In this document: positions 4,889-28,654 of the stretch, piece after piece | How the letters are laid out: each line of letters starts with the position of its first letter | How positions within the stretch are numbered: the first letter of the stretch is position 1 | Virus record (IMG/VR): IMGVR_UViG_3300043419_000168 | Location: 1-53,020 of that record | DNA: 53,020 bases | Direction: 5' to 3' (one strand) | From: a virus | Taxonomy: Duplodnaviria; Caudoviricetes | Position numbers and translations under genes: made by a program | The notes under the pieces: model-generated | Seen by the model: only the letters and a program-made list of their open reading frames with translations | What the model was told of the DNA's origin: nothing | The model's database searches: none

Positions 4889-6165
4889 TGCAGACATCAC
4901 AAAATCTAAGATTCGCTGGTGATGTTGAGATTGAACAGGTTAGAGTAGTTACTTCTACTGGGTTTTATCAAGACATCACAAATCAGATTATCGGTATTCA
5001 AATCTTTGAAGATTTGTTATCACCATTCATCACAGGTACACTGATTCTTAAAGACACATTAGATTTAATCAATGTTATGCCATTCGTTGGCGAAGAATAC
5101 TTAGATTTAAAGATTAGCACACCTACTCTTAAAACTGGAAATATATCTGGTAAATTTTACATATTCAAAATGACTGACCGAGATATGGTTGGTGATCGAT
5201 CTGTAGTTTACCAATTACATTTTACATCTCAAGATGCTTTATTAGATTTAAATAAAGCCATTAGTAAAACATTCTCTGGTAAAGTTTCTGATGTGGCGAA
5301 AACATTATTGACTGATAAAGTCAATGGTATGCAGGTTACAAAGAAATATAATATTGAAGAAACAGATAACTCTACAAAGTATACTTCTAATTTCTGGTCT
5401 CCATTAAGAAACATTTTATACCTAACTGAAAACGCATTGAGTAAATCTAAAGCTCCAGATTATGTGTTTTTTGAAAATAGAGATGGGTATAACTTCACTT
5501 CTTTATCTTCATTATATAAGCAACTTCCACTTCAGAATTTTATATTCGATAATTATAATAGAGATGATAGAGCTGGTGGCGGTAGCATTAAAAACTTGAA
5601 CGAAGATTACAAACGAATCCAATCTATAACTATCCCAGAGGGGTTTGACTATATCGATAGAATAACCAGTGGTATGTATGGTTCTAGATTATATACACAT
5701 GATATAACTTCTAAAAAAGTTACAAGTAAAAACTTTGATATGCTTGCTAACTTTAAAACCAAAACTCACTTAAACACATACCCAGCTGCTTCGAGTAAGG
5801 TTGTTTATCGTTATGGCGCAAAGGTTATTACTGAACCTAAGTATTATAATAATTTTAGTAACTTTGGTAATGCAACAAATACGGAATTCATTCAAGAGCG
5901 TCTATCTCTGATGAAACAGGCTGAGTCAACTAAAATAGAAATCGTTGTTCCTGGTAGAATGGATTATACCGTCGGAAGAACTGTTTCAGTGAAACTGAAT
6001 AAAATACAACCAATAGCTAAAAACGACAGAGATACATTAGACAATGTGTTCTCTGGTAATTACTTAATCTCTGCGATCAATCATTTTATTACCAGAGAAA
6101 AGCATGAGTGCACTTTAGAGTTGATTAAAGATTCGTTATTAATAAATCTTGATGGGAAGAAATAA
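4888..6165 (+). CDS. Baseplate hub protein (gp27-like)
   Basis: Lies between gp53 and gp5; IFEDLLSPFITG, YVFFENRDGYNF, SGNYLISAINH. Confidence 0.65.
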   Translation: MQTSQNLRFAGDVEIEQVRVVTSTGFYQDITNQIIGIQIFEDLLSPFITGTLILKDTLDLINVMPFVGEEYLDLKISTPTLKTGNISGKFYIFKMTDRDMVGDRSVVYQLHFTSQDALLDLNKAISKTFSGKVSDVAKTLLTDKVNGMQVTKKYNIEETDNSTKYTSNFWSPLRNILYLTENALSKSKAPDYVFFENRDGYNFTSLSSLYKQLPLQNFIFDNYNRDDRAGGGSIKNLNEDYKRIQSITIPEGFDYIDRITSGMYGSRLYTHDITSKKVTSKNFDMLANFKTKTHLNTYPAASSKVVYRYGAKVITEPKYYNNFSNFGNATNTEFIQERLSLMKQAESTKIEIVVPGRMDYTVGRTVSVKLNKIQPIAKNDRDTLDNVFSGNYLISAINHFITREKHECTLELIKDSLLINLDGKK

Positions 6166-9745: not shown

Positions 9746-10138
9746 ATGGCACGTAATACAAGAATATTCTCTGATTTAGACCTCAATTTCACTGCTCACC
9801 CAGTGACTAAGGACATTACTCGTAGATATGACGAGAATGCGATTAAGACCAGTCTAAAAAACCTAATTTTAACATCAAACTATGAGAGACCATTTCATAG
9901 TGAAATTGGTTCTCCAATAAAGCGTTTATTGTTCGAGCCAGCTACACCTATGCTAGAGAACTTGATTCAACGAGCAATAGTTGATGTTGTGACTAACTTC
10001 GAACCACGTGTTCAGTTAATAGATGTTAATGTTCAGTTAAGTCCAGATACAAATTCACTGTATGTGACAATAGAATTTAAAATAGTTAATACCGAGAGTC
10101 CTTTAACTCTTGACCTAGTATTAGAGAGAACCCGATAA
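9746..10138 (+). CDS. gp25: Baseplate wedge subunit gp25
   Basis: FSDLDLNF, AIKTSLKNLILT, ERPFHSEIGS, FEPRV. Start moved from 9695 to the ATG at 9746 (MARNTR), which follows the PAAR stop and a late promoter motif. Confidence 0.92.
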   Translation: MARNTRIFSDLDLNFTAHPVTKDITRRYDENAIKTSLKNLILTSNYERPFHSEIGSPIKRLLFEPATPMLENLIQRAIVDVVTNFEPRVQLIDVNVQLSPDTNSLYVTIEFKIVNTESPLTLDLVLERTR

Positions 10139-11967
10139 TGGCAAATAAAAAGATCAATGTAACCGAATTAGATTTTGATAAAATCAAGGCTAATCTAAAG
10201 ACGTTTTTACAAGGACAAACAGAATTTCAAGATTACGATTTTGAGGGATCTGGTTTATCTATTTTGTTAGATGTGTTAGCATATAATACACACTACAATG
10301 CTCTTTATAATAACCTAACAATAAATGAGATGTTCCTTGACTCTGCCAGCAAAAGAAACAGTGTAGTTTCTCTGGCTAAGATGCTTGGTTATGTTCCAAG
10401 ATCGGCTAAGTGTTCAGAAGCGTCTCTACGCATAACTGTAAATAATGGGGTTTTAGGACCAAGCAGTTTAACACTACCAGCATATTCTACATTCAACACT
10501 ATCGTTGATGGAACTTCTTATACGTTCCACACTACAGAATCTTATACTATTTCTGGTTCTGGAACATCATACACATTCGATAATGTTAAAGTAGTTGAGG
10601 GAACACCACTATCATTTAAGTATACAGTTGCTTCTGGTGCAAGATACGTAATTCCTAACGCTGATGTTGATTTGACAACATTACGTGTTAAAGTTCAAGA
10701 ATCTGCGTCTTCATCTATATATGAAACATACATTAGTTCTTCTTCTATAACTACAGCTGATAAAGATACTAAAGTATATTTCGTTAAAGAAATCGACGAT
10801 GGTCTTTACGAATTAACATTCGGTGATGGGATTATCGGTAGACAATTATCAAATGGTAATGTTATCCACATCGATTATTTCACATCAAGTTTAGATGCGC
10901 CAAATGGTGCACGTTTGTTTACGTACACTGGTCCAACTCTATTAAGCAATTCAACTGTTAATATCACATGCTTGAGTATTGCTCAGAGTGGTTCTTCCGC
11001 TGAAGATATTGAAAGTATCAGATTTAACGCACCAAGAACTTATGCTGCCCAAAACCGAGCAGTAACTCCAGAAGATTATAAGGCGATTATCTACTCAGCT
11101 ATGCCAGAAGCTAAAGCAGTTTCTGTTTGGGGTGGCGAAGATAATAATCCACCTGTTTATGGTAAAATTTTCGTGTGTATTAAGCCACGCGATGCAAGCA
11201 AATTGACTCAGTTACAAAAAGCCAATTTAAACTCAACAATATTGGCAAATAAAAACGTAGTTTCTGTTATACCAGAAATCGTAGATCCTGAGTTTATCAA
11301 TATCTCTTTGGATGTTAAAGTATATTTCAACGAAAGAGAAACTACGAGAACTGCTGCTGAGATTGAAACTATCGTAACAAATACAATATTTGATTATGAT
11401 GATTCAGACCTACAGAACTTTGATGGTGTATTCAGATTCTCTAAACTATCTCGCTTAATTGACGAGTGTGAGCAGGGCATCCTAAATAATATTACAACAG
11501 TAACTATCAGAAGAAAATTACAACCAAGATATAACGTCTCAGCCCAGTATCTATTGAACATTATTAACCCAATTTATACTGCGGGTTTACCAGAGGGTGC
11601 TGTTACTACAACTGGATTCTATATTGCTGGATCTGACGATATACATTATATCGATGACGATGGTGTTGGTAACCTTCGTTTATTTAAGTATGGAACTAAT
11701 GCCACAAAGATTATTGTTGATGAATCTATTGGATTTGTTTACTACGATAAAGGTATTTTAGATATTAGAAATTTACATATTGTTGCTTTGGCTGACATTG
11801 ATTTTGAAGTATCTATCAAACCAAGTTCTAATGATGTTGTTTCAGCATTAACTCAAATTGCGCAAATCGCAAGAGATCACTTAACAGTGACAGCGATTGC
11901 AGATAAGTCAGCTAATGGTGATTTACGTGGTGGTTACAATTACACATTCTCTCCAAGTAGAACATGA
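10138..11967 (+). CDS. gp6: Baseplate wedge subunit gp6
   Basis: LDFDKIKANLK, DYDFEGSGLSILLDVLAYNTHY, FGDGIIG, AQNRAVTPEDY, VWGGEDNNPPVYGK. Confidence 0.95.
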   Translation: MANKKINVTELDFDKIKANLKTFLQGQTEFQDYDFEGSGLSILLDVLAYNTHYNALYNNLTINEMFLDSASKRNSVVSLAKMLGYVPRSAKCSEASLRITVNNGVLGPSSLTLPAYSTFNTIVDGTSYTFHTTESYTISGSGTSYTFDNVKVVEGTPLSFKYTVASGARYVIPNADVDLTTLRVKVQESASSSIYETYISSSSITTADKDTKVYFVKEIDDGLYELTFGDGIIGRQLSNGNVIHIDYFTSSLDAPNGARLFTYTGPTLLSNSTVNITCLSIAQSGSSAEDIESIRFNAPRTYAAQNRAVTPEDYKAIIYSAMPEAKAVSVWGGEDNNPPVYGKIFVCIKPRDASKLTQLQKANLNSTILANKNVVSVIPEIVDPEFINISLDVKVYFNERETTRTAAEIETIVTNTIFDYDDSDLQNFDGVFRFSKLSRLIDECEQGILNNITTVTIRRKLQPRYNVSAQYLLNIINPIYTAGLPEGAVTTTGFYIAGSDDIHYIDDDGVGNLRLFKYGTNATKIIVDESIGFVYYDKGILDIRNLHIVALADIDFEVSIKPSSNDVVSALTQIAQIARDHLTVTAIADKSANGDLRGGYNYTFSPSRT

Positions 11968-13787
11968 TAACTAGACCAAGAATTTCTTCACTTGTAGCGA
12001 GTCAGTTACCTGAGTTCGTTAGAGAAGATCATCAGACGTTCGTCCAATTTTTAAAAGCGTATTATGATTATCTGGACGGAGAAACTCCAGATATCAAAAC
12101 ACTAAGAGATTTAGATACAACTCTAGAATCTTTTATTAAACATTTTAAAAATGAGTTGGCAGTAAATCTACCAACCACTGTTGTTTCTGAAAGATTTTTA
12201 TTACAACACATTAAAGAACATTACTTAGCCAAGGGTTCAGAAGAATCATTTAAGCTGCTGTTCAGATTGTTATTTAATAAAGATGTTACTGTTGAGTATC
12301 CATCTAAACAGATGCTCCGTGCTTCTGATGGTAAGTGGAATCAAGACGTTTCTATTATATGTAAAGTTTTAACTGGCCACCCAGACGAGGTTGTTGGTAA
12401 ACTAATTGACGTAATCACACCAAACAGAATCATTCGTGTTTTAATTGACAGACGTCAATATGTTGAAATTGAAGTTGAGCGTGTAGTTGAAATCGCTCCA
12501 GATATCTATGAGTTTTATATTGACCGTAGATTCTTCGGTGACATTTCTATCGGCGACAGACTTCGTTATCAAACAGATGACATTTATTTCACTGCAGAAA
12601 TATTAGCGACAACAGCAAAATTAGATATATTGCAGGCTGGAACTGGATTTAGAGTTGGACAACTATATCCTATCAGAAATGGTAGAGGATATGGTTCTAT
12701 TATGAAAGTCACTAAGGCTAGTTCTGAGGGTGGTATATTATCAGCTGAGTTTATTAAGTTCGGAACTGGTTATTCTACAGATTTCACATCAACAATTTAT
12801 GCTGACTTGGGACAATCGTCAACAGGTACTGGTGGAACTACATTACAAGTCATTGGTGGTAATATTTCTATTAGTGAAACCACTGATGGTTTTTCTGAAT
12901 CAGGAACATTAAACAGAGCAGACTACGCTTTAACTGCTATTGATGGAACATATGCTGGTGAAGTTTTAAGAGAATTCGGTAATCAAGAAGCAGCTATTGA
13001 AAGTCCATTTGAACCAGCAGTAATTAAAGTTTCTCTTGGACCTCTTGGTAAATATCCAGGTTATTACATCAATAATGATGGTTTCTTGAATGACGCTATT
13101 TTTATTCAAGATAGTCGTTACTATCAGGCATTCTCATATGTACTTAAGATTGACGAGCTTCTAGATTCTTATAAGTCATTAGTGAAAGCATTAGTTCACC
13201 CAGCTGGTATGGCTGTATTTGGTGAATATGATATTCGTAACGAGTTTGATATCGGATTAGAATTAGAATCAATGATTAAAATTCTTGCTGTTACTGAGCA
13301 AGAAGAACAGTTTATCGAAGACTCTATTTCAGAGATTTTCTTGACTAAAGGCTTTGAACATAGTGTTTCTTTATCTAATGATTTTATTTCGACTAAAGGC
13401 TTGCATAAACCTTTAGCAGATACTACATCATACTCAGACGAAATTTCAAGAAGAGATTTCGGTAAATTATTAAACGGTAATGGCGAAGCAGTTCTGTTGG
13501 GTGATGATGGTATTCAACAGAAAGATTTCGGTAAATTATTGACAGATATTCAATTAATGTCTGACAATGGTAATGGGGCATTTAAGAGAGATTTCGGTAA
13601 GTTACTAGAAGATATTCCTGTTGTTATAGAGACGCCTTACCTAACTGTGACTAAATATATTGACCCTGCAATTTCTGGTGTTGACGAGACTATACCTGTC
13701 GATGCTGGCGGTTTTATGATTATAAACCCTTATGCTGACGCTGGTTGGTTCTTAGAACAATACGTCGGCGAACCAATCAATTTTTAA
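11964..13787 (+). CDS. gp7: Baseplate wedge initiator, gp7-like
   Basis: QLPEFV, YLAKGSEESFKLLFRLLF, LRASDGKW, IQDSRYYQAFSYVLK, LVHPAGMAVFGE; follows gp6. Confidence 0.78.
   Translation: MITRPRISSLVASQLPEFVREDHQTFVQFLKAYYDYLDGETPDIKTLRDLDTTLESFIKHFKNELAVNLPTTVVSERFLLQHIKEHYLAKGSEESFKLLFRLLFNKDVTVEYPSKQMLRASDGKWNQDVSIICKVLTGHPDEVVGKLIDVITPNRIIRVLIDRRQYVEIEVERVVEIAPDIYEFYIDRRFFGDISIGDRLRYQTDDIYFTAEILATTAKLDILQAGTGFRVGQLYPIRNGRGYGSIMKVTKASSEGGILSAEFIKFGTGYSTDFTSTIYADLGQSSTGTGGTTLQVIGGNISISETTDGFSESGTLNRADYALTAIDGTYAGEVLREFGNQEAAIESPFEPAVIKVSLGPLGKYPGYYINNDGFLNDAIFIQDSRYYQAFSYVLKIDELLDSYKSLVKALVHPAGMAVFGEYDIRNEFDIGLELESMIKILAVTEQEEQFIEDSISEIFLTKGFEHSVSLSNDFISTKGLHKPLADTTSYSDEISRRDFGKLLNGNGEAVLLGDDGIQQKDFGKLLTDIQLMSDNGNGAFKRDFGKLLEDIPVVIETPYLTVTKYIDPAISGVDETIPVDAGGFMIINPYADAGWFLEQYVGEPINF
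13452..13606 (+). repeat. Three imperfect repeats encoding (R/K)DFGKLL
   Basis: AGATTTCGGTAA(A/G)TTA recurs at ~13454, ~13523 and ~13589 (spacing 69 and 66 bp). Confidence 0.7.
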
Positions 13788-16873: not shown

Positions 16874-19800
16874 ATGATCGATTTCAATACAGAACCGTAT
16901 AATGACGATTACGACGAGAATCAGAAATTTTACCGTATTCTATTCCGTCCAAGTTTCGCTGTGCAAGCCCGAGAGCTTACTCAGATGCAAACTATTTTAC
17001 AGAAACAAATTTCCCGTCATGGTGACCACGTATTCAAACAAGGTGCAATGGTTATCCCAGGACAGATCTCTATCGATAATAAAGCACAGTATGTTAAGCT
17101 AAACCCATTATATGCTGGTGTTGCGGTAGAAACATTCTTATCCAACTTAGAAGGTAAGATCCTTGTTGGCAGTAGCGGTCTAAAGGCAGAAGTTATTAAA
17201 ACTCAAAGCCAAGAAACTACAGAACCAACAACAATTTACGTTCGTTATAAGAACTCTGGTACAAATACAACAACAAAAACATTTGCTCCTGATGAAGTTA
17301 TCACAACAGAAGATTCAGTATATTCTGTTCAAGTATCTCCATTAGAAACAACTCCGACTGGTGTCGGTTCAATTGTAACAATTCAACGTGGTGTTTACTA
17401 CGTTAACGGACACTTCGTTTTAGTTGATACTCATTCTTTAATTTTAGAAAAATATTCTGACACACCATCATATCGTGTTGGTTTGGCTGTTCAAGAAACA
17501 GTTATAACTCCAGAGGATGAAGATAGCTTATTAGACAATGCTCAAAACAGTTATAACTTTGCTGCTCCAGGTGCTCATCGTTATTTCATTGATTTAACAT
17601 TGGCTAAGTTACCTTTAACTTCAGTTGAAGATAAAGACTTTATTGAACTTCTTCGTGTTAACGAAGGTGTTAATCAGAAACAAGTTTCTAAGACAGAATA
17701 TGCTGAATTAGAAAAGACTTTAGCACGCAGAACTTACGACGAATCTGGTGATTACACTGTTCGTGAGTTTGCAATCGATGTTCGTGAACATCGTAATAAT
17801 GATCGTGGCGCATGGACTGGCACTACATCATTCCTATTGGGCGACGTAGTTACTAATGCTGGTAAAACATACGTAGCTAAAAATAATGGAACATCTGTTT
17901 CAATTGCACCGACACATACTTCTGGCACTGCATACGATGGTCCAGGTTCTACTGGTATTAACTGGGAATATAACGAGAACCCAGTTTATAATCGTGGTAT
18001 CTTCAGAACAGGCGATGTCAACAAATTAGCTATTGGTTTGGAGCCAGGAAAAGCATATGTTCGTGGTTACGAAATTGAAAAGATTTCTACAGAATATGTT
18101 GCTGTAAATAAAGCACGCGATTATGTTCAGGCTGATAATGCGTTCGTTACTGCAACAGTCGGTAACTTTATCTACGCAACTAACCTTAATAATCTACCTC
18201 CAATCAATACATTTGACACAGTAGATCTATACAATAGAGTTACTGGATCAGCTGGTCGTGGAACTGCTGTTGGTACTAAAATTGGTACTGCCCGTGTTCG
18301 TTTTATCGAATGGGATAACGGAACTATCGGTTCAGCTTCAGCAGTGTGGAAAGTTTCTCTATTTGATGTTAAATTAAACTCTGGTTACACTTTCGATCGC
18401 CATGTTAAATCTGTATTCTTTAATGGTGGTTCTGCAGCTACAAGTTTTACTGCAGACGTTAATCCAATAACAACTCAGTTAATTGGATCAGTAACTGCTG
18501 CGGGAACTACAGTAACTGGTACTGGAACTTCATTCCAAACAGATTTAATCGTTGGCGATTATATCTCTGTTGCTGGTGGATTATATCGTGTTACTGCTAT
18601 CGCTTCTCAAACATCATTAACGATTGATGCTTCTTTAACTACAACTGGTGCTACATATAGCTTAGTTGAAACTAGATTGATCGAGTCTGATAAAGATAGT
18701 TTAGTATTCTCATTGCCATACTATGCTATTCGTTCTTTAAGAAGTTCTCTTGGAACTAATGATACTTCTTATACAGTTTACGAAAGATTCACAGGAACAA
18801 CTTCTTCCTTATCTGGCGGTAACTGCACATTAACAGTATCAACATCATCTGGTTCTATGGCATCAGGTGCTGTTTCTGGTAACTACATTTTGATTGACAA
18901 TACTACTGGTGATGTTGTGTTACCATCTGCCATTGTTCCATCTGGTGCTTCTGTTACATTTACGATCCCAGGAGCTTATGCATCAAGACCATTCGTAGTT
19001 ATCGGTGCTGTTAATAAAACTGGTTCTACAAATACTGAAAAAACTAAAACTCTTAACAGTGCAACAGTAACATTTACTACTCAGGCTACTGCAACAGCAA
19101 CTACTTTGTCTCTAGGTAAGTCTGACGCGTGGAGAATTGTTTCTATTAAAATGAAGTCTGGAACATTCGCAAGTCCAGGTTCTACTTATGACATTGATAT
19201 TTCAGATCGTTATAGTTTCGATAATGGTCAACGTGCCACTTATTACGATCTAGGTAAAATTAACCTAAAAGATACATTCGTCCCACCATCAGCACCAATC
19301 GAAGTTGTGTTCGAATACTTCACACACTCTACTGGTGACTACTGCTCTGTTAACTCATACCCATCTGAAGTTTCTTACAATGATATCCCAGCTGAGTTGC
19401 GCGATTCATTAGACTTCCGTCCACGAATTGATGATGCAGGAACAACATTCACTGGATCTGGTTCTGCAGTATTAGTACCTAAGCGTGGTGCCGATGTTAG
19501 AACAGACTTCACTTACTACCTATCAAGAAAAGAAAAAGTTGCTGTTGATATCAATGGTAACTTCTTTAGTATTTCTGGAACATCTTCTTTAACTCCTGGA
19601 GAGCCAGAAGATCCAGCTACTGGCATGGTTCTTTACAAGTTAACACTTGAGCCATACACATTCGGCACTTCTTCAGAGAACGTAACTATTTCTAAAGTAG
19701 ACAATAAACGCTACACAATGCGTGATATCGGTAAGCTAGAAAAGCGTATCGATAACTTGGAATACTACACTTCATTATCATTGTTGGAGCAAGAAACTCA

Positions 19801-22800
19801 GTCATTGAAGATTTCTGATTCAACTGGTTTAGATCGTTTGAAGAATGGTTTCATTGTTGATAACTTCTCTGGCCATGGTGTTGGTAATGTATCATCACCA
19901 GACTATAAGTGTTCAGTTGATATGGAGAAAGGCGAACTACGTCCATTCTTCACAATGACCAACGTAAACTTAATCGAGAAGAACTCGAACGACACACAAA
20001 GAGAAGCCAGCAACTACGCTCAATATGGTGATGTTGTAACATTACCAATTCTTGAAGATGTTGTTTTAGTTAAACAAGAATTTGCTTCTCGTTTAGAAAA
20101 CATTAACCCATTCGCTATCTTCACTTTTATCGGTGACGTTAAGATGAACCCAGCTGCCGATGAGTGGTTCGAGGTTGATCGTCGCCCAGATATTGTGAAT
20201 AATATTGAAGGTAACTTCTCAACAATCGCTACACTTGCTGAAAAAGCTGGTGTTCTTGGAACTGTTTGGAACTCATGGCAGACTCAGTGGTCTGGAGTTC
20301 CTGTATCTCAAGGAGTTAGAGGTCTTTCTCGTAGCGAAATCGTTTCACGTTTCGGTAATGGTCCAGCTCGTCAGGTTACAGCTGAGTTCTTCGCAACTGA
20401 AATTGGTCAATCAAGAACTGGTGTTAGAAGTTCTGTTGTAGCTAAAGTTGATAAGCAAGTAGTTGCTGATCGTGTTTTATCTACTGCAGTTATTCCTTAC
20501 ATTCGTTCAAGAAATGTATTAGTTCAGGTTCGTGGTCTAAAACCACAAACTCGTTTCTATCCATACTTCGATAATATCGATGTTTCTTCTTACTGCACTC
20601 CAGCATCTAAGATTACTTACACTGGAACTCAAGCGTTCGACTTTGAAAGTAATGTTGGTGGTACTGCATCAGAAACTGCTCGTAGAATCGCTGGTGATTC
20701 ACAAGTATGTTTGAACAGAGGTGATGTTATCACTGGTGTTACTTCTGGAGCTACAGCGGTTGTTGTTGGAACAGAACTAGACCCAGATACTGGTGCTAAA
20801 GCGTTATTGGTCGTTAACATTATTGGAACATTCCAAACTAACGAACAGATTACTGGTTCTATCACTAACTCAACTGCGACAATCAACTCTGTGTCATTAG
20901 CAACAGTTGGTGGAACTTTAACATCAAATAAGAATGGTAACATTAACTTACTATTCAACATTCCTAACACTGATGCGGTTCGTTTCCGTACTGGTTCTCG
21001 TGAGTTCAAGTTAATCGACAACTCAGTTGCAACTGGTGATTACACTTCTCGTGGTCGCTCAAACTATAGAGCTGAGGGTATTATTGAAACTCGCCAGTCA
21101 TTGGTTAACGCAGTTCGTAACGCAGAAATTGCTCAAGAAGTTGTTCAAGATTCTCAAACTATCATTGAAACTTCTCAGCGTGTTATTTCTGATACTGGTT
21201 GGTATGACCCTCTTGCTCAAACATTCTTGGTTGAGAATAAGGGTGGCGCATTCTTGACAGCTGTTGACATTTTCTTCGCTTCTAAAGATTCACAAATTCC
21301 TGTGACTTTAGAGATTCGTGAAGTTGTTAATGGATATCCAGGTAAGCGTGTTCTACCATTCTCACGTGTAACTCTTAACCCAGAACAGATTAACTTGTCT
21401 ACAACTACAGTAGATCTAGATGGTGTTGCTACTCCTAAGTATGACACACCTACACAATTTAGATTCACTTCTCCAGTTTATGTTCAGGACGCTGGTGAAT
21501 ATTGTATCGTCTTGCAATCTGACTCTAACAAATACAAGTGCTGGATTTCTCAGGTAGGTGATGCTGTTCCAGGAACATCTAGAACTATTTCTGAGCAACC
21601 GTATGCAGGTTCTTTATTCAAGTCTCAGAATGCTTCTACTTGGACAACTGATCAAACACAAGACTTGAAGTTTACTATCCATCGTGCTAAGTTTGATACT
21701 TCAGCTGTTGGAACAGTTCAGTTCGTAAACGATGTTCTACCATATAAGTCTTTAGTGGCTGATCCATTCCAGACTACTACTGGTTCTACAATCGTTCGTG
21801 TATGGCATGATAACCATGGCTTGGTAGCTGGTTCTAAAGTTATTATCTCTGGCGCAACTGGAACTCTAAACGGAATTCCTTCTGCTCAGCTAAACGCAAC
21901 ACATACTGTTGCTAACGTAGATCTAGATTCTTATACGATAACAGTTACTACAGCTGCAACAGCAACTGGTTATGCTGGTGGTTCAACTATCCGTGCAACT
22001 GGTCAGGTTCAATATGATGCTGTTTATCCAATCGCTCAGGTTCAAAGTTTCTCTGAGACATCTGTAAACTACTCAGTTAAAACAACTTCTGGTGCGTCTG
22101 TTGATGGAACTCAAACTGCCTACATTCAGGATGTGAGTTTCGGTGATTGCTTGGCCAATGAAAATAATTACTTCTACAGCCCTCGTTTGGTTGCTTCTGA
22201 AGTGAACGAAAATAATTCTCTTGGTGGTAACAAGTCTGTTACATTCGCAGTTAACCTATCTTCAACTAATGACTCTTTGTCTCCAGTTTTAGATACACAA
22301 AGAATGTCGCTAGTTGCTATTTCTAATAGAATTAACTCTCCTACACACGCTAACGTGGACGTAACTCCAGTAGATTACACAACACTGTTTACTGGTGCGA
22401 CTGGAGCGTTTAGCTTCTCTGGTTCTACAATTACATCAACTAATACTACTGTAAGAAACTTAATTTCTACAATTGGTATCGGTCAATACGTTAAGATTGA
22501 GTCTGCAACAACTTCTGGTAATAACGGACAATTCTTAGTAACTGATTTGACTGATGATGGAACAACAGGAACTATAACTGTATCTGGTGTAACATTCACC
22601 AGCGAAGCAGCTGTTACTGGAACTACAGTATCAACTGTAAACTTGTTCACAGATGAAATTGCACCGATTGGTTCTTCGACTGCTTCTAAGTATGTAACAA
22701 ATGCAGTTAAATTGGCTCTTCCATCAACATTCGTGAAGATCCGTTTTGCAGCTAATGTTCCTTCTGGAGCAGACGTTGATGTTTATTATAAAACTTCTCT

Positions 22801-23020
22801 TGGTTCTACTGGAACACTGGATAAGACTAAATATACTTTAGCAACTCCAGTTGTCCCTGCCGTTAAGGTAGAGAATGGAAATGAAACATTCTACGATGTT
22901 GACTATTCTTTAACTAACCTAAACCCATTCGATACGATTCAGGTTAAGGTTGTTATGAAGTCTACAAATAGTTCTGCAATTCCTAGAATCAAAGATTTAC
23001 GAATTATTGCTTGTGCGTAA
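16874..23020 (+). CDS. Large virion structural protein, VrlC/DUF4815-like
   Basis: FNTEPYNDDY...FYRILFRPSFAVQARELTQMQ, APGAHR, LARRTYDESGDY, YTMRDIGKLEKRI, DPLAQTF, PRIKDLRIIA; late promoter motif ATAAATA at 16834. Confidence 0.85.
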   Translation: MIDFNTEPYNDDYDENQKFYRILFRPSFAVQARELTQMQTILQKQISRHGDHVFKQGAMVIPGQISIDNKAQYVKLNPLYAGVAVETFLSNLEGKILVGSSGLKAEVIKTQSQETTEPTTIYVRYKNSGTNTTTKTFAPDEVITTEDSVYSVQVSPLETTPTGVGSIVTIQRGVYYVNGHFVLVDTHSLILEKYSDTPSYRVGLAVQETVITPEDEDSLLDNAQNSYNFAAPGAHRYFIDLTLAKLPLTSVEDKDFIELLRVNEGVNQKQVSKTEYAELEKTLARRTYDESGDYTVREFAIDVREHRNNDRGAWTGTTSFLLGDVVTNAGKTYVAKNNGTSVSIAPTHTSGTAYDGPGSTGINWEYNENPVYNRGIFRTGDVNKLAIGLEPGKAYVRGYEIEKISTEYVAVNKARDYVQADNAFVTATVGNFIYATNLNNLPPINTFDTVDLYNRVTGSAGRGTAVGTKIGTARVRFIEWDNGTIGSASAVWKVSLFDVKLNSGYTFDRHVKSVFFNGGSAATSFTADVNPITTQLIGSVTAAGTTVTGTGTSFQTDLIVGDYISVAGGLYRVTAIASQTSLTIDASLTTTGATYSLVETRLIESDKDSLVFSLPYYAIRSLRSSLGTNDTSYTVYERFTGTTSSLSGGNCTLTVSTSSGSMASGAVSGNYILIDNTTGDVVLPSAIVPSGASVTFTIPGAYASRPFVVIGAVNKTGSTNTEKTKTLNSATVTFTTQATATATTLSLGKSDAWRIVSIKMKSGTFASPGSTYDIDISDRYSFDNGQRATYYDLGKINLKDTFVPPSAPIEVVFEYFTHSTGDYCSVNSYPSEVSYNDIPAELRDSLDFRPRIDDAGTTFTGSGSAVLVPKRGADVRTDFTYYLSRKEKVAVDINGNFFSISGTSSLTPGEPEDPATGMVLYKLTLEPYTFGTSSENVTISKVDNKRYTMRDIGKLEKRIDNLEYYTSLSLLEQETQSLKISDSTGLDRLKNGFIVDNFSGHGVGNVSSPDYKCSVDMEKGELRPFFTMTNVNLIEKNSNDTQREASNYAQYGDVVTLPILEDVVLVKQEFASRLENINPFAIFTFIGDVKMNPAADEWFEVDRRPDIVNNIEGNFSTIATLAEKAGVLGTVWNSWQTQWSGVPVSQGVRGLSRSEIVSRFGNGPARQVTAEFFATEIGQSRTGVRSSVVAKVDKQVVADRVLSTAVIPYIRSRNVLVQVRGLKPQTRFYPYFDNIDVSSYCTPASKITYTGTQAFDFESNVGGTASETARRIAGDSQVCLNRGDVITGVTSGATAVVVGTELDPDTGAKALLVVNIIGTFQTNEQITGSITNSTATINSVSLATVGGTLTSNKNGNINLLFNIPNTDAVRFRTGSREFKLIDNSVATGDYTSRGRSNYRAEGIIETRQSLVNAVRNAEIAQEVVQDSQTIIETSQRVISDTGWYDPLAQTFLVENKGGAFLTAVDIFFASKDSQIPVTLEIREVVNGYPGKRVLPFSRVTLNPEQINLSTTTVDLDGVATPKYDTPTQFRFTSPVYVQDAGEYCIVLQSDSNKYKCWISQVGDAVPGTSRTISEQPYAGSLFKSQNASTWTTDQTQDLKFTIHRAKFDTSAVGTVQFVNDVLPYKSLVADPFQTTTGSTIVRVWHDNHGLVAGSKVIISGATGTLNGIPSAQLNATHTVANVDLDSYTITVTTAATATGYAGGSTIRATGQVQYDAVYPIAQVQSFSETSVNYSVKTTSGASVDGTQTAYIQDVSFGDCLANENNYFYSPRLVASEVNENNSLGGNKSVTFAVNLSSTNDSLSPVLDTQRMSLVAISNRINSPTHANVDVTPVDYTTLFTGATGAFSFSGSTITSTNTTVRNLISTIGIGQYVKIESATTSGNNGQFLVTDLTDDGTTGTITVSGVTFTSEAAVTGTTVSTVNLFTDEIAPIGSSTASKYVTNAVKLALPSTFVKIRFAANVPSGADVDVYYKTSLGSTGTLDKTKYTLATPVVPAVKVENGNETFYDVDYSLTNLNPFDTIQVKVVMKSTNSSAIPRIKDLRIIACA

Positions 23021-23247
23021 TGGAAAATTTTCTTAAAGTTCAGGGTCATGATGGCTTGGTTAGAGATACCTCTTCCAATGCCATCATAAATACTAGTATG
23101 GTTGATTATGTTCAATATATGAACCAACGTAAGGCTGCAGAACAAAAAGAAAATATTATAAAGACTCAAGCAGAAGAAATAAATAATATTAAATCAGAGC
23201 TTTCTGACATTAAGCAGATGCTTACTGTGTTACTAAAAGATCGCTAA
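23020..23247 (+). CDS. Small coiled-coil protein following the VrlC-like gene
   Basis: KVQGHDGLVRDTSSNAIINT followed by a coiled coil; start set at the TAATG overlap (23020). Confidence 0.75.
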   Translation: MENFLKVQGHDGLVRDTSSNAIINTSMVDYVQYMNQRKAAEQKENIIKTQAEEINNIKSELSDIKQMLTVLLKDR

Positions 23248-23262
23248 GAATAAGGGAAAATA

Positions 23263-24435
23263 ATGGCGACACTCGTTCTCCGACAAGTCAAGGGGTCTCC
23301 TCTTACAAACGCTGAGGTTGATGCCAACTTCACGAATCTAAACAATGAATTATCAACTAAGCTAACAGCTACAGACTATAACGCTGCTGACATTCTCACA
23401 AAACTTAAAACAGTTGATGGGTCTGGTTCTGGTTTAGATTCAGACTTACTAGATGGTCTATCAGCATTATCAACACTTCCTGTACCGACAGATAAGAGCT
23501 CTATCGTAGCTCGTGATTCTTCTGGTAACGCAACCCTAAATGCATTGACTTTGGTTGGTGCTTTAGCTGGAACTTCTGGTACGTTTTCTGGAAATTTATC
23601 AGTTGGAAGTATCACTATCAATGGTGGTTCTATTCCAGTTTCTGTTGGTGGTACTGGTGCAACAAACGCATCGAACGCTAGAGCGAATCTTGGCTTGGCG
23701 ATCGGGTCTGATATTCAGGCTTATGATGATTCGTTGCAAGCTATTTCTGCTGTAACACTGACAGCAGACTCTATTCCATATTTTACAAGTTCTACTGCAG
23801 CTGCAGCAACTACGCTAACTGCCTTTGCCAGAACTCTATTGGATGACGCTAACGCATCAACTGCCAGATCTACTCTTGGTTTAGTTATCGGTACAGATGT
23901 TCAACCATTCGACGCTGACTTGTCTGGATTCTCTGGTTTATCTACCAATGGTATTATTGTTAGAGTTTCCAGCGGTAACATCGTTTCAAGAGAAATTACT
24001 GGTGTTATCGGCGACATCGATGTAGTAAATGGTGATGGTGTTGCTGGTTCTCCAGCTTTATCTGTTGGCGCAAATATTCCTCGTCTAGCTTCTAATAATA
24101 CATTTGCTGGAACTACAAATACATTTGTTAATGTGGTGGCTACCTCTTACCAAACTACTTCTGATGCAAGATTAAAAGAGAATGTTCAAACGCTAAATAA
24201 TGCTGTAGAAGTTGTAAATAGACTTCGTGGTGTTTCATATACAAGAAACGGTAAACCAGAAATTGGTCTTATTGCACAAGAAGTTGAGGCTGTTATTCCA
24301 GAGGTTGTTGGTGAATCTGGTGAATATAAGACAGTTTCTTATGCTAACATTGTTGGTTTATTGATCGAAGCTATTAAAGAACAACAAAAAACTATTAAAG
24401 AATTAACTACTCGCGTAGAGAACTTGGAGAAATAA
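23263..24435 (+). CDS. Tail fibre with C-terminal intramolecular chaperone (peptidase S74)
   Basis: KGSPLTNAEVDANF N-terminus; GGTGA...ARANLGL fibre repeats; SDARLKENV...IGLIAQEVE...LLIEAIKE. Confidence 0.88.
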   Translation: MATLVLRQVKGSPLTNAEVDANFTNLNNELSTKLTATDYNAADILTKLKTVDGSGSGLDSDLLDGLSALSTLPVPTDKSSIVARDSSGNATLNALTLVGALAGTSGTFSGNLSVGSITINGGSIPVSVGGTGATNASNARANLGLAIGSDIQAYDDSLQAISAVTLTADSIPYFTSSTAAAATTLTAFARTLLDDANASTARSTLGLVIGTDVQPFDADLSGFSGLSTNGIIVRVSSGNIVSREITGVIGDIDVVNGDGVAGSPALSVGANIPRLASNNTFAGTTNTFVNVVATSYQTTSDARLKENVQTLNNAVEVVNRLRGVSYTRNGKPEIGLIAQEVEAVIPEVVGESGEYKTVSYANIVGLLIEAIKEQQKTIKELTTRVENLEK

Positions 24436-24436
24436 T

Positions 24437-24805
24437 ATGCCTGTAAGCGCAACTGGATTTAAAATTTCGTCTGGAGCAGACCTTAATGGTGTGTTCTGGG
24501 GATGGCAGGGTGATACTGGAAATCGTGGTGTAAACGACAGTAATGGTAACTGCGGATGGAACTGTGCATGTAACGCATGTAACTCAGCATGTAACTGTAA
24601 CTGTGGTAACTGCGACGCTGCTGACTTAGCATTAAACGTACACGTTACTGATTGGCGTTTAAACGTATTCCGCAATACTGCATACAATGATGGTCTCCGT
24701 CACGACTCACAAGAACAATCAATGGGACATTTCAAGTATTTACGTGTTAATTGCAACTGTAACTGTGCATGTAACTGTAACTGTGCATGTAACTGTAACT
24801 GCTAA
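24437..24805 (+). CDS. Cys/Asn-rich small protein (17 Cys); candidate radical-SAM substrate or fibre-tip protein
   Basis: NCGWNCACNACNSACNCNCGNC (8 Cys) and terminal NCNCNCACNCNCACNCNC (9 Cys); SD GGAG; starts 1 bp after the fibre stop. Confidence 0.8.
   Translation: MPVSATGFKISSGADLNGVFWGWQGDTGNRGVNDSNGNCGWNCACNACNSACNCNCGNCDAADLALNVHVTDWRLNVFRNTAYNDGLRHDSQEQSMGHFKYLRVNCNCNCACNCNCACNCNC
24755..24802 (+). repeat. Tandem 18-bp repeat AACTGTAACTGTGCATGT (~2.7 copies) encoding NCNCAC
   Basis: Read directly from the sequence. Confidence 0.9.
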
Positions 24806-24817
24806 GGAATAAATTAA

Positions 24818-25840
24818 ATGTATAAGTTAATTAAAACAAAAATTACTGGCTTTGACGATATTGAAGATAGCCCTATTGGTGTTAACTCTAATTATAGAGC
24901 TACTATGGGATATGATTCTACAAACGAAACCATTAATGTTAAAGTAGAAAAAATTATTCGCCCTGAGTTAACTAGAGACGAAGAAGTTGAATTTTCTTAT
25001 CAGATTGTTGATGAAAAGTCTTTCACTAAAGCAGACTTTGTTCAAACTAAAGAAAATATGGCATGGCAGGTAGACTTTGATGTTCAGAGTGAGAAAATTG
25101 TAGCTCCTTTAGACGTTTATGCGTACACATCAACTATCGCTACTGGTTCATTATTCCATCGTGTAATGTGGAGAAAAATTAAAGAGCGTTATTCTAGCGA
25201 TACTTTACTTCCACTATTCACTGTAGATTCTTTCTATAAACAAGCTGAAGGGTTTTCCCTTTCAACGCTACAGTTCCACGTGGCTGATAATCCAGGACAA
25301 ATTTCTGACACTGTTATTACAAATTCTGACGTAGAAGAAATGACACAAGCAGAAAAGATTTCTTATTTGTTTGATAATATCAATACTGCAGTTTTTTATG
25401 AAGTGTTTGATGCAGATGATAATTTGTTATCAACCATTGTACCAGTCCCATGTCCTTACCCACAAGTTGCTGTAGCTGCTCGTGAAGGTGATGCAGTAAG
25501 ATCTAGAGGTGGTAATCAGTATAGAACTACATTACCTAAGGCTAGCTCATATAAAGTTGTAGTGTTTTTCCTTAGACTTAATCACAACACAACAATTCCA
25601 TGTCAGTTTGATGTTTCATGTGTTAATGGAGTTGCTTCTAAATCACGTGTTATTTCTGGACTAAAACCAGGTGAACCTACTTCTTATAGAGGAGTTAACC
25701 CAAGAGGAGAATTTACTAGATTTTCTGGAAGCGAAGTCATTAAAGTTAATGTGGACTTAGAATCTGGAGATTTCTTTAAATTGAAATTATCTTGTGGAGA
25801 TTTCTACTCATATTCAGAACTTTGGGCTGATATAGAATAA
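24818..25840 (+). CDS. Hypothetical protein in the radical SAM island
   Basis: 340-aa ORF with SD AAGGA; no motif recognised. Confidence 0.7.
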   Translation: MYKLIKTKITGFDDIEDSPIGVNSNYRATMGYDSTNETINVKVEKIIRPELTRDEEVEFSYQIVDEKSFTKADFVQTKENMAWQVDFDVQSEKIVAPLDVYAYTSTIATGSLFHRVMWRKIKERYSSDTLLPLFTVDSFYKQAEGFSLSTLQFHVADNPGQISDTVITNSDVEEMTQAEKISYLFDNINTAVFYEVFDADDNLLSTIVPVPCPYPQVAVAAREGDAVRSRGGNQYRTTLPKASSYKVVVFFLRLNHNTTIPCQFDVSCVNGVASKSRVISGLKPGEPTSYRGVNPRGEFTRFSGSEVIKVNVDLESGDFFKLKLSCGDFYSYSELWADIE

Positions 25841-25907: not shown

Positions 25908-27377
25908 ATGGCTGCATATAAAATGATCTTACAGGGATCAAATGACGTGAAACAGGTTTTAGTATATGACCCGATGACATCAAAAATGTATTGGGAAGAA
26001 ACTGGCGAAAGACCATCGCTAAACTATATCGCTAATGGTTTGGAGTATCAAATTGATGCTAAAGTCTGGACTCCTGCAAATGTAACTAATCCACATAATC
26101 CAGATCTTCACGGAAAAAAATCAAGAAAACCTACAACTCTTAAGATAACTATGGGTCTTAAGTGTAATTATGCATGTTCATATTGTAACCAAGCTCATCA
26201 ACCACATGACCCAGTTGGTGGTCCAGAAGATGCTGAAGAATTGATTGCTAAGATGAAATCTAATTTCTCATTTGGCACTTATGATAAATTTAGACTAGAA
26301 TTTTGGGGTGGTGAACCTTTAGTTTATTGGAAAACATTAAAACCTCTAGCTGAAAAGGTTAGAAAAGTTTATCCCAACGCACAATTTATGATGGTCACTA
26401 ATGGATCTTTATTAGATCGCGATAAAGTCGACTGGTTCAACCGTATGGGATTTTCAATCGGTATGTCTCATGATGGACCTTTACATGCACAAAATCGTGG
26501 ACCTGATCCACTAGATGAGCCTAAGGCTAAAGATGCTGTTGTTTATGCTCTTAAAACTATGGGTCAGACTAGATTTACCTTTAACTGCGTATTGACAAGA
26601 GAAAACGTGTCAATCTCTGCAGTTCGTGATTTCATTTTAGACAAATTAAATCGTAAAGATTTTGGGTATGAATATACTGAAGTTTCTCAGATGGAACTTC
26701 AAGTGACGACAGAAGAACTGATGTTACCTTATGACGACTCTGGTATGGCACATTCTTTGCATACTACTGATGAAAAGAAAGAAATTTTACATTCTCTATT
26801 CTGGGAAACTATTCAATCTAAGAATCAGTTTAGTTGGACGATTAATCAAAAGATTCAATCTTTCTTTGAGTCTTTAGTGTATCAAAGACCTGCTGAAGTT
26901 ATTGGTCAAAAATGTGGTATGGATAAAGAAGATAATCTTGCCATCGATATGAAGGGTAATGTAACTACATGTCAGAACACTTCTTCTTTAACTAAACACA
27001 ATCTTGGTAATATCGAAGATATGGATAATGTCCGATTGACGAATTCATATCACTGGTCAACTAGAGCGGAATGTCCGTCATGCCCAGTTGTTCAATTGTG
27101 TCAGGGTGCGTGTTTGTTCTTAGAGGATCAGTATTGGACTCAGGCATGTGAAAACTTATTCTATTATAACTTGGGTATGTTAGCTAGTTCTCTTTTCATC
27201 CTTACAGATGGTTTAATTTTAACCGAAATTCATGGCGATAAAATTAGATTCGAAGGAGTTACTTCTATTCCAGTAATTGATATTGACTTCGTCAAGTCTA
27301 ATGGAAAGCAGAAATCTTGGAAAGTTAAAAAACCAATTAACATTCCTATCGTTACAGTACCAGCAGTACCACAATAA
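25908..27377 (+). CDS. Radical SAM enzyme with SPASM domain (peptide/protein maturase-like)
   Basis: CNYACSYC (CxxxCxxC), FWGGEPL, VTNGSLL, SHDG; SPASM cysteines C-x18-C and CPSCPVVQLCQGAC-x11-C. Confidence 0.93.
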   Translation: MAAYKMILQGSNDVKQVLVYDPMTSKMYWEETGERPSLNYIANGLEYQIDAKVWTPANVTNPHNPDLHGKKSRKPTTLKITMGLKCNYACSYCNQAHQPHDPVGGPEDAEELIAKMKSNFSFGTYDKFRLEFWGGEPLVYWKTLKPLAEKVRKVYPNAQFMMVTNGSLLDRDKVDWFNRMGFSIGMSHDGPLHAQNRGPDPLDEPKAKDAVVYALKTMGQTRFTFNCVLTRENVSISAVRDFILDKLNRKDFGYEYTEVSQMELQVTTEELMLPYDDSGMAHSLHTTDEKKEILHSLFWETIQSKNQFSWTINQKIQSFFESLVYQRPAEVIGQKCGMDKEDNLAIDMKGNVTTCQNTSSLTKHNLGNIEDMDNVRLTNSYHWSTRAECPSCPVVQLCQGACLFLEDQYWTQACENLFYYNLGMLASSLFILTDGLILTEIHGDKIRFEGVTSIPVIDIDFVKSNGKQKSWKVKKPINIPIVTVPAVPQ

Positions 27378-27706: not shown

Positions 27707-28654
27707 ATGCAACAAAAACACGTAAAATGGGTTATTGCCCATGAGCCGATTGGTTTGTTCTTAAAGGTAGCTGACGCATTCGCTAAAGAAGTGAACGAAC
27801 AAACTGGTGGAAAATTCAATATTGAAGTTCTATCATTATCTGACTATGCAGAAAAGTATAACGATGGTAAGAAAATTACTAAAGACGACTTGATGGCATT
27901 GGTTGATACTGGTGCAATCGAAATGAGTCACATCTATACAACATGGCTAGCTGACTATAACAAAGATCTACATGCTCTAGATCTACCATTCTTGTTCCGT
28001 GATCACGATCATGCTGACGCAGTTCTAGAAGGCGAAATCGGTACTGAATTGTTGGCTGGTGTTTCTAAACAGTCAAATATCAAGGCTATGTCTTTCACTT
28101 ATTCTGGTGGTTATCGCGTAGTTCCAGCTAACTTCCGTGCTGATACTGTAGAAGCATGGAAAGGTAAAGCTGTTCGTACCTCACGTTCACCAGTTGCTGT
28201 TGAAACATTCAAGCTACTTGGCGCAGAACCAAAAGAGCACATCGCTCTAGAAGAAATGAACGCAGCTGCTAAAGCTGGTCAGATCGAAGCTGGTGAATCT
28301 ACTTATGTTCGTGTATTCCCACTACAACAGAATGAAGCATTTGCTGTAGTTAATGATACTGCACATAGCTTGTTCTTAACTTCTATTATCGTTAACCAAG
28401 ATTTCTTCAAGCAGTTTGATCAAGAAACTCAAGAAATTATGGCTACTGCTGCATTCAATGCTGCTCGTAAAGAGCGTCGTGAATCAGTTGCTGATATTCC
28501 AAACATCCTAGCTGAATGTGCAGCTAAAGGTGTTGAAGTTGTTAAGATGTCTGCTACTGAAGAGCAGAAGTTTAAGGAAGTTACTTCTTCTGTGTATGAG
28601 AAGTTCGCTGACTACTTCACTCCAGGATTGGTTCAGAAGATTCAATTACATTAA
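27707..28654 (+). CDS. dctP: TRAP transporter substrate-binding protein (DctP family), no signal peptide
   Basis: FAKEVNEQTGGKFNIEV, LDLPFLFRD, GYR, GKAVRT (conserved Arg position), TAHSLF; strong SD AGGAG. Confidence 0.85.
   Translation: MQQKHVKWVIAHEPIGLFLKVADAFAKEVNEQTGGKFNIEVLSLSDYAEKYNDGKKITKDDLMALVDTGAIEMSHIYTTWLADYNKDLHALDLPFLFRDHDHADAVLEGEIGTELLAGVSKQSNIKAMSFTYSGGYRVVPANFRADTVEAWKGKAVRTSRSPVAVETFKLLGAEPKEHIALEEMNAAAKAGQIEAGESTYVRVFPLQQNEAFAVVNDTAHSLFLTSIIVNQDFFKQFDQETQEIMATAAFNAARKERRESVADIPNILAECAAKGVEVVKMSATEEQKFKEVTSSVYEKFADYFTPGLVQKIQLH

Follow-up and report, generated by a model that had tools for sequence, protein, structure and literature searches.

A cysteine-repeat tail encoded beside a phage tail fibre and its conserved radical SAM/SPASM neighbour: a candidate enzyme-substrate pair

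Virus record IMGVR_UViG_3300043419_000168 of IMG/VR (Duplodnaviria; Caudoviricetes) was analysed as one stretch of 53,020 bases, hereafter called the window; it comprises the complete viral record, for which the estimated completeness is 33%. The analysis concerned an open reading frame (ORF) at positions 24437..24805, which encodes a protein of 122 amino acids (aa) in which Asn or Ala alternates with Cys up to the stop codon (NC protein). This gene directly follows a tail-fibre gene and precedes two further genes, the first encoding a protein designated 'cluster 0' and the second a radical S-adenosylmethionine (rSAM) enzyme with a SPASM domain. Carrier of the NC tail, cluster 0 gene and rSAM gene constitute a widespread, conserved three-gene module.

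Genes at the locus

The fibre gene, the three genes of the module and the segments distinguished in their products are located in the window as follows.

23263..24435 (+): tail fibre, 390 aa; self-cleaving chaperone domain of the Peptidase_S74 type at the C-terminus (about residues 300-390; PF13884)
24437..24805 (+): NC protein (Asn-Cys repeat protein), 122 aa, ATG start, 17 Cys in all
24437..24550 (+): NC protein residues 1-38, N-terminal segment without Cys (conservation 0.65)
24551..24613 (+): NC protein residues 39-59, first Cys cluster with 8 Cys, of which residue 39 is the first (conservation 0.87)
24614..24748 (+): NC protein residues 60-104, spacer of 45 aa without Cys (conservation 0.66)
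24749..24802 (+): NC protein residues 105-122, tail of nine (N/A)C units up to the stop codon (conservation 0.94)
24818..25840 (+): cluster 0 protein, 340 aa, third core gene of the module; all-beta and multi-domain, with an immunoglobulin (Ig)-like C-terminal domain, in its AlphaFold2 model
25908..27377 (+): radical SAM/SPASM protein-modifying enzyme, 489 aa (PF04055, TIGR04085, phrog_1802)
26163..26186 (+): CxxxCxxC motif of the rSAM enzyme, residues 86-93 (C86, C90, C93)
26913..27149 (+): seven SPASM Cys of the rSAM enzyme, residues 336-414 (C336, C355, C389, C392, C398, C402, C414)

The product of the upstream gene matched Peptidase_S74 at residues 300-349 (PF13884, E 1.3e-15; 57.9 bits against a family cut-off of 22), and matches to 43 PHROG families, mostly of tail fibres, were also found. 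An initial annotation of the locus, made from the sequence alone, had placed the start of the NC gene 1 bp after this S74 fibre. This was confirmed: a single base lies between the fibre stop (ORF end 24435) and the ATG of the NC gene, and a GGAG sequence is present 7 nucleotides (nt) upstream of that ATG. The rSAM gene is located two genes downstream of the NC gene, 1.1 kb away and on the same strand.

Anatomy and conservation of the NC protein

The anatomy given in the initial annotation, with a Cys-free N-terminus, a cluster of 8 Cys, a spacer and nine (N/A)C units reaching the stop codon, was recovered, except that the spacer comprised 45 rather than about 44 aa. Residues 105-122 of the protein read NCNCNCACNCNCACNCNC, so that 9 Cys occupy the last 18 positions, directly followed by the stop codon. 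Conservation of each segment was expressed as the mean fraction of residues identical to the window residue in 16 homologues of the NC protein. By this measure the tail was the most conserved segment (0.94), followed by the first Cys cluster (0.87), the spacer (0.66) and the N-terminal segment (0.65). The annotation had suggested a comparison of homologues for conserved Cys clusters and a variable spacer; the Cys clusters were indeed conserved, but the spacer was not hypervariable, with a conservation equal to that of the N-terminal segment. Six of the 8 Cys of the first cluster (39, 43, 45, 54, 56 and 59) were invariant in homologue alignment A2. In the spacer, T71, D72, R74, F78, R88, Q92, F99 and R103 were invariant.

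The Asn-Cys repeat in the window is far from a chance occurrence: a degenerate DNA pattern of the repeat gave 3 overlapping matches in the window, versus 0.00 expected from 100 shuffles. In 11 in-register homologues Cys was kept in all 99 tail cells, in 37 of them via the other Cys codon, and the last 18 codons of the NC gene showed 62 synonymous versus 10 non-synonymous differences; with three out-of-register rows added, these counts became 68 and 52, respectively. The reading frame of the NC tail is the selected frame and is under purifying selection.

No family in Pfam (E ≤0.01), NCBIfam or PHROG (E ≤0.001) was matched by the NC protein, and a kinship with gp38, the adhesin that the initial annotation had cited for this gene position, consequently gained no support from Pfam or PHROG. 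A large-database search with the protein returned 10 clusters, none of them named, and a protein-atlas search yielded no usable match for either the NC protein or the cluster 0 protein. In a tblastn search of 50,697 phage records, no match to the NC protein was found at E ≤1, probably because low-complexity sequence was filtered and close isolates are lacking. A three-copy complex prediction of the NC protein had a score of 0.00, which, with controls not run, speaks neither for nor against trimerisation.

The radical SAM/SPASM enzyme

Both domains of the enzyme scored above their family cut-offs (radical SAM, PF04055, 37.5 bits against 29.5; SPASM, TIGR04085, 36.3 bits against 27), and the protein matched phrog_1802 with an E value of 1.7e-63. 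All 10 cluster Cys, comprising those of the CxxxCxxC motif and the seven of the SPASM region, were invariant in 12 diverse homologues. Matches to named families involved PapB, DynA, the nif11 maturase, anSME, CcpM, QhpD and SCIFF, enzymes that modify Cys-rich peptides or proteins (E values 1.3e-20 for PapB, 1.3e-17 for anSME, 2.5e-17 for CcpM, 7.3e-16 for QhpD and 2.1e-14 for SCIFF). PapB (NF047865) was the top named NCBIfam family, with 73.9 bits against an equivalog cut-off of 340, and the enzyme is therefore not a member of it. Scores were likewise below the cut-offs of SCIFF/CteB (TIGR03974, 53.3 against 425), CcpM (TIGR04068, 62.9 against 500), QhpD (TIGR03906, 57.9 against 453) and anSME (TIGR03942, 63.9 against 349.45). 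As all named-family scores were far under their cut-offs, the enzyme was assigned to a separate family. The nearest solved sequences were 5wgg (1.4e-10), followed by 8vpo and the anSME entries 4k36 (4e-7) and 4k37.

Association of the tail with the enzyme across phages

Relatives of the rSAM enzyme with about 38% identity were found by tblastn in Ralstonia phage RSP15 and in Achromobacter phages JWF and 2-1; in RSP15 and JWF, both of which are annotated, the gene is located among tail-fibre genes. At least 576 relatives were detected in IMG/VR; a set of bacterial genomes with one per species contained 184, mostly in Alpha- and Betaproteobacteria, where they presumably represent prophages.

The association was investigated from two sides. 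An enzyme-based set consisted of 176 loci, of which 5 lacked a full rSAM ORF; in 129, such an ORF was preceded by 3 kb of DNA or more. In 124 of these 129 loci, an (N/D/A)-C repeat protein was encoded upstream of the rSAM gene on the same strand, with the repeat either C-terminal or directly before a Hint domain. In 106 of the 129, a run of ([NDAQSTV]C)x3+ terminated an ORF upstream on the same strand, no more than 4 aa before its stop; the same NC run was followed by a slightly longer tail in 7 and fused to a Hint-type domain in 11. NC-type tails downstream of the rSAM gene were absent from the loci examined. A looser (xC)x2 tail at the C-terminus, counted on both strands as a control, occurred in 34 of 6231 minus-strand ORFs versus 147 of 5656 plus-strand ORFs.

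The reciprocal set, which was blind to the enzyme, comprised at least 117 new IMG/VR loci retrieved with a DNA pattern for (NC)x4. Among the matches listed, 67 were located at the C-terminal end of a frame encoding 60 aa or more; an rSAM gene was present on the same strand in 45 of these, less than 5 kb of downstream DNA was available in 17, and no rSAM gene was found in 5. The enzyme was thus encoded downstream of 45 of the 50 assessable C-terminal NC tails. The remaining 50 matches listed were short frames, internal or cut by the contig end, many of them in giant-virus bins, and an rSAM gene was found in a single case. The tail-enzyme association holds from both starting points. Across 137 loci, the cluster 0 gene directly followed the NC gene in 95.

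Two further families of small proteins also end in NC repeats, one exemplified by L211 and L261 (also L219, L277 and L303) and one by L316 (also L232, L273 and L300). Over a distance of at least 5 kb, no same-strand rSAM gene of the type studied here accompanied either family. A conserved HTH-x-F-x-DDY motif precedes the repeat in one of the two, and CQ and CxxC abound in the other.

Proteins that carry the tail

The 137 loci yielded 128 distinct NC-tail carriers with lengths of 68-726 aa, and in most module-bearing phages the repeat forms the last 6-25 residues of a fibre protein. At the 816 positions preceding Cys in terminal runs, Asn was found 540 times, Ala 151 times and Asp 81 times, and these three residues interchange even between close homologues. 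Seven of 10 sampled long carriers matched PHROG tail families, while 3 matched nothing. The carriers of L019 and L025 matched the tail-fibre family phrog_8469 (3.8e-31 and 3.9e-19, respectively). Those of L137 and L160 combine a T7 tail-fibre N-domain (5.4e-20 and 3.1e-22) with collagen repeats, a CBM_5_12 domain and the terminal NC repeat, which indicates that the module also occurs in podovirus-type fibres.

L137, 3853..6030: carrier fibre with T7 N-domain
L160, 5220..7085: carrier fibre with T7 N-domain

Collagen repeats were also present in the carriers of L073 and L095, and in L095 they run straight into the NC tail. In phage RSP15, ORF048, annotated as a side tail fibre of 290 aa, contains only 3 Cys and has the C-terminus NTNCQCGN. 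In JWF, gp028 is annotated as a gp36-like fibre, and its repeat region, NCNCDCNCNCSC, is directly continued by a Hint domain (PF05203, 47.5 bits; cut-off 32.1). Pfam searches with the neighbours of the rSAM genes of RSP15 and JWF gave nothing beyond the Hint and Shufflon_N matches of JWF gp028. RSP15 ORF046 was considered as a candidate 2-oxoglutarate (2OG)/Asn hydroxylase and was discarded, as Pfam gave no support.

In the Hint-fused carriers, the Hint domain starts with the final Cys of the repeat. The motif C-F-P/L-x-G-T was found in 10 of 11 such carriers, with a variant in L154. Among 6 sampled Hint-fused carriers, 4 had Hint-type Pfam matches, all below the cut-offs, and 2 had none; JWF alone scored above. 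Self-cleavage of the Hint domain, via a thioester intermediate, would leave the repeat as a new C-terminus. Loci with a Hint-fused NC carrier were L027 (JWF), L080, L081, L086, L093, L097, L100, L101, L104 and L109, with L154 and L148 as variants.

Phage fibres such as those of T7 and T4 are attached to the tail by their N-terminus, and a C-terminal repeat would therefore be located at the distal end of the fibre. Distinct small NC proteins (≤140 aa) were encoded directly after an S74-type fibre in 16 of 21 cases, as opposed to 0 of 95 for the long carriers; L136 barely misses the S74 motif, and its inclusion raises the number of small NC proteins after S74 fibres to 17. This distribution is as expected, since an S74 fibre loses its own C-terminus and cannot keep a terminal repeat. 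The proposal in the initial annotation that the NC protein belongs with the fibre was strengthened by this distribution and by the occurrence of the same repeat at the end of true tail fibres elsewhere. A further proposal, that the two Cys clusters pair with each other, was weakened: many carriers contain few other Cys, as in the RSP15 fibre, and a necessary pairing was rejected because most carriers have the terminal repeat alone.

Proposed role of the tail and the enzyme

The combined observations suggest that the NC protein is probably a structural component of the fibre tip of a T4-like aquatic myovirus and that the rSAM/SPASM enzyme encoded two genes downstream acts on the terminal (N/A)C repeat of this protein as its substrate. 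In the window, removal of the S74 chaperone domain by cleavage would yield a fibre that carries no tail of its own. The tail would then be supplied on a small separate protein, of which translation starts 1 nt after the fibre stop and which would join the S74 fibre and thereby become part of the virion. The enzyme would abstract a hydrogen from a neighbouring residue and join the Cys sulfur to the resulting carbon, with sactionine- or ranthionine-type thioethers, as in sactipeptides, ranthipeptides and QhpC, as the most likely product. Thioether cross-links would be non-reducible and could be formed in the reducing cytoplasm, a rationale that follows from the inability of disulfides to form in the cytoplasm, where fibres assemble.

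A more detailed scheme can be put forward only tentatively. In phages of several morphotypes, the enzyme might link the three (N/D/A)C tails of a presumed trimeric fibre through thioethers before the fibre leaves the cytoplasm, and the resulting covalent knot, which would resist reduction, might lock the receptor-binding tip and dock the hypervariable cluster 0 protein. It would then represent an enzymatic counterpart of the collagen cystine knot.

Several observations weigh against these proposals. No NC tail was found in 5 of the 129 rSAM loci (L078, L082, L084, L131 and L167) and, conversely, 5 C-terminal NC tails among the matches listed had no rSAM gene across at least 5 kb (L211, L261, L275, L282 and L316). 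Many loci are close relatives or prophage copies, and the counts therefore overstate the number of independent events; the link between S74 fibres and small NC proteins involves two lineages only, the clade of the window and that of L021/L022. Some tails end in CC, CCGCC or DCCC, which are closer in appearance to metal-binding motifs. The scores of the enzyme, far under every maturase cut-off, imply that its reaction cannot be transferred by homology. The AlphaFold2 monomer model of the NC protein, based on a 16-row alignment, was unusable (mean predicted local distance difference test, pLDDT, 40.9; predicted TM-score, pTM, 0.18) and thus provides no fold, oligomer or interface for this protein. 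Finally, the exchange of Asn, Ala and Asp before Cys is a poor fit to a fixed Asn acceptor. This last point bears on the Cys-to-Asn crosslinks proposed in the initial annotation, which did not cite the enzyme: enzymatic Cys chemistry, including Cys-to-Asn thioethers, is plausible because an rSAM/SPASM maturase is a near-constant neighbour, but the interchange of residues does not favour Asn as the sole partner. The interpretation in that annotation was, as a whole, partly supported.

Alternative explanations

It is rather unlikely that the repeat is a metal-binding or disulfide element and that the rSAM enzyme acts on some other target. According to the metal-based version of this explanation, three CxC tails of a trimeric fibre would hold metal ions along its axis; according to the disulfide-based version, the tails would be oxidised after lysis into an interchain cystine knot. 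Precedents for both exist, as HxH motifs in the needle of T4 gp37 hold iron and type III collagen ends in an interchain cystine knot. Alternating Cys would share one face of a beta-strand, the CC, CCGCC and DCCC tail ends resemble metallothionein motifs, the free exchange of Asn, Ala and Asp before Cys would be expected if small size alone counts, and the position of the L095 repeat directly after collagen triple-helix repeats implies that three tails would be in register. The explanation nevertheless leaves the company of the SPASM enzyme (124 of 129 loci in one direction and 45 of 50 among the matches listed in the other), in phages of differing morphotypes, unaccounted for. Metallothioneins are small and essentially devoid of aromatic residues. 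With 17 Cys in 122 aa the NC protein shares their Cys-richness and their CxC motifs, but it is larger, contains Trp, Phe and Tyr, and matched no metallothionein family in Pfam.

A different type of chemistry on the same tail, such as an anSME-like conversion of Cys to formylglycine or formation of a C-C or C-O link, which would create a reactive or rigid tip, is considered unlikely. SPASM enzymes in general catalyse several types of reaction, the closest relatives of the enzyme, both in named families and among solved sequences, include anSME (TIGR03942, 1.3e-17; 4k36, 4e-7), and the JWF enzyme was annotated by its depositors as an anSME type. Against this stand the anSME score, far under the cut-off (63.9 versus 349), the absence of the sulfatase motif C/S-x-P/A-x-R from the 122-aa protein, and the fact that thioether-forming families gave the strongest named matches. 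An ordinary precursor of a ribosomally synthesised and post-translationally modified peptide (RiPP), in which the N-terminal segment acts as a leader and the modified Cys-rich core is cut off to give a free bioactive peptide without connection to the virion, is very improbable. The classic ranthipeptide/sactipeptide layout, with a small Cys-rich ORF beside an rSAM/SPASM maturase, is present in the window, and the NC protein has no structural-protein family match of its own. However, the same tail ends fibres of 190-726 aa with tail-fibre domains rather than short released precursors, and this makes a released RiPP unlikely; the module is embedded among baseplate and fibre genes, the genes between the NC gene and the rSAM gene and those beside them in the window included no protease or exporter family, and the Hint-fused forms would release a fibre rather than a peptide.

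Comparison with known systems

QhpD is an rSAM/SPASM enzyme that cross-links QhpC, the small Cys-rich subunit of quinohemoprotein amine dehydrogenase. The phage system resembles it in that the proposed substrate of a SPASM rSAM enzyme is not an exported peptide but a protein of about 100 aa that is folded or structural; in QhpC, Cys is linked to Asp or Glu carbons. It differs in the alternating (N/D/A)C run at the extreme C-terminus and in its location in a phage fibre module instead of a dehydrogenase operon. Among peptide maturases, PapB/freyrasin uses a CX3D motif and NxxcB an NxxC motif, with Cys joined to the Asn beta-carbon; the CteB/SCIFF and CcpM systems are further examples. Ranthipeptide and sactipeptide systems share with the phage module the presence of a Cys-rich repeat beside an rSAM/SPASM maturase, and NCNC contains the N-x-x-C spacing. 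They differ from it in that no exporter or protease family was found in the phage module and that the NC tail is carried by tail fibres, the longest of 726 aa. A pattern with Cys at every second residue is not among the named Cys-repeat maturase systems of NCBIfam that were matched, which include CefB with Cys at every fifth residue.

The gp38 adhesin of T2/T6 and tail-fibre assembly proteins are encoded just after the fibre gene. The NC gene has the same position directly after a distal fibre gene, with a tightly coupled start at a gap of 1 nt; the NC protein is, however, conserved rather than hypervariable and showed no sequence kinship with gp38 in Pfam or PHROG, and the hypervariable gene at this locus is the next ORF (24818..25840). 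Trimeric fibres are known to end in an HxH-iron needle (T4 gp37), a zinc site (T4 gp12) or a C-terminal cystine knot (collagen III). Like the NC tail, which would also terminate a trimeric fibre, these ends consist of a short motif with regular spacing that serves as ligand or cross-link, but the potential ligand in the NC tail is Cys rather than His and a dedicated radical enzyme is encoded alongside. Self-cleaving fibre domains provide a further parallel, with S74 in the fibre of the window and a Hint-type motif immediately behind the final Cys of the repeat in at least 10 carriers; a Hint domain placed such that its cleavage exposes a Cys repeat as C-terminus was not described in the literature searched.

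Prior descriptions and significance

The host range of phages is decided by the tips of their tail fibres, which are not known to mature by routes other than folding, chaperones and self-cleavage. Neither the repeat nor an rSAM enzyme acting on fibres was described in the literature searched, which left most subscription journals outside its coverage, and the widespread module of fibre tail and rSAM/SPASM enzyme is apparently undescribed so far. Passages in earlier papers refer to rSAM cassettes in a pelagimyophage host-recognition cluster (PMC7029224), to many rSAM genes in marine T4-like genomes, with up to 12 in one (PMC5332604), to dioxygenases predicted to modify collagen-like and tail-collar proteins (PMC2938197), and, in another context, to an rSAM maturase in a list (PMC12801897). 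Virion proteomics of RSP15 or JWF was not found in the literature searched, supplements aside, and may exist.

If the proposed role is correct, some phages may use an enzyme to complete the host-contacting part of the virion, and enzymatic post-translational chemistry would join the list of routes by which fibre tips mature. A large phage rSAM family of unknown function would acquire a testable substrate, and the C-terminal run with Cys at every second residue would be a new and easily recognised substrate motif of SPASM enzymes. If, in addition, a thioether knot is formed, this would be the first RiPP-type radical chemistry on a structural protein of a virion. The host-recognition regions of marine T4-like phages contain many rSAM genes without an assigned function, and such a knot would account for some of them and possibly also for 2OG-oxygenase genes in these regions. 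Experiments are feasible, since the isolated phages JWF and RSP15 carry the module.

Cluster 0 protein and other genes of the module

Cluster 0 was the most divergent gene of the module. In 14 close loci, identity to the window was 19-39% for the cluster 0 protein, compared with 53-71% for the S74 fibre, 55-94% for the NC protein and 63-88% for the rSAM enzyme. As the most variable protein of the module, cluster 0 is a better candidate for an adhesin than the NC protein, and its position and divergence suggest that it may be a partner of the fibre tip, either as adhesin or as assembly chaperone. Its AlphaFold2 model had a pLDDT of 87 and a pTM of 0.86. A Foldseek search of the model against the PDB returned just low-TM matches to pilins and Ig-like domains, indicative of a generic beta-sandwich. 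With VIA-align wide, Z scores of at most 8.5, in a range that is common for this tool, were obtained for the Ig-like C-terminal domain only, and the N-terminal 190 residues were barely covered. Matches in BFVD were uncharacterised phage proteins.

Additional genes occur between the NC gene and the rSAM gene in other loci. Two families of 2OG-Fe(II) oxygenases were found in this gap in 51 and 10 of the 137 loci, respectively, and a second rSAM gene in 9 of the 137 (for example L146, 6963..7976). The gap also contained an unnamed family of about 285 aa (17 loci) and a fatty-acid-desaturase-like gene (L136 and L175). Many loci have one to three 2OG-Fe(II) oxygenase genes (PF13759, PF13640) at this position, as in L025 (6162..7956) and L021 (3372..4016 and 5422..6018). 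The gap in the window itself was without a 2OG oxygenase, second rSAM or desaturase-like gene. Peptidase and transporter or exporter families were absent from the genes between the NC gene and the rSAM gene and from the neighbours of the module in the window. Both this absence and the presence of further protein-modifying enzymes in the gap count in favour of the role proposed for the NC tail.

Genome setting

Upstream of the fibre gene, the window encodes a giant structural protein.

16874..23020 (+): DUF4815 (VrlC-like) giant structural protein, 2048 aa (PF16075, E 3.3e-57)

Proteins resembling gp6 and baseplate-wedge proteins are encoded at 10138..13787, and the portal-like protein of the window shares 55-60% identity with those of Pelagibacter, Methylophilales and Synechococcus myophages. 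The baseplate genes, the DUF4815 gene and the portal identities together place the NC gene in the baseplate/fibre block of a T4-like aquatic myovirus.

A giant DUF4815 ORF also adjoins the module in RSP15 (L001, 7208..12142) and in L028 (6112..10071); it is located before the fibre gene in the window and after the rSAM gene in RSP15 and L028. Between the DUF4815 gene and the fibre gene, a 78-aa ORF (23011..23247, +) showed a weak match to the C-terminal domain of phage G1 gp67, with an E value of 2.8e-4 and 21.8 bits, under the cut-off of 27. Directly after the rSAM gene, and still in the structural region, a solute-binding protein of a TRAP transporter of the DctP family is encoded at 27707..28654 (+; PF03480, E 3.8e-42), which is presumably an auxiliary metabolic gene.

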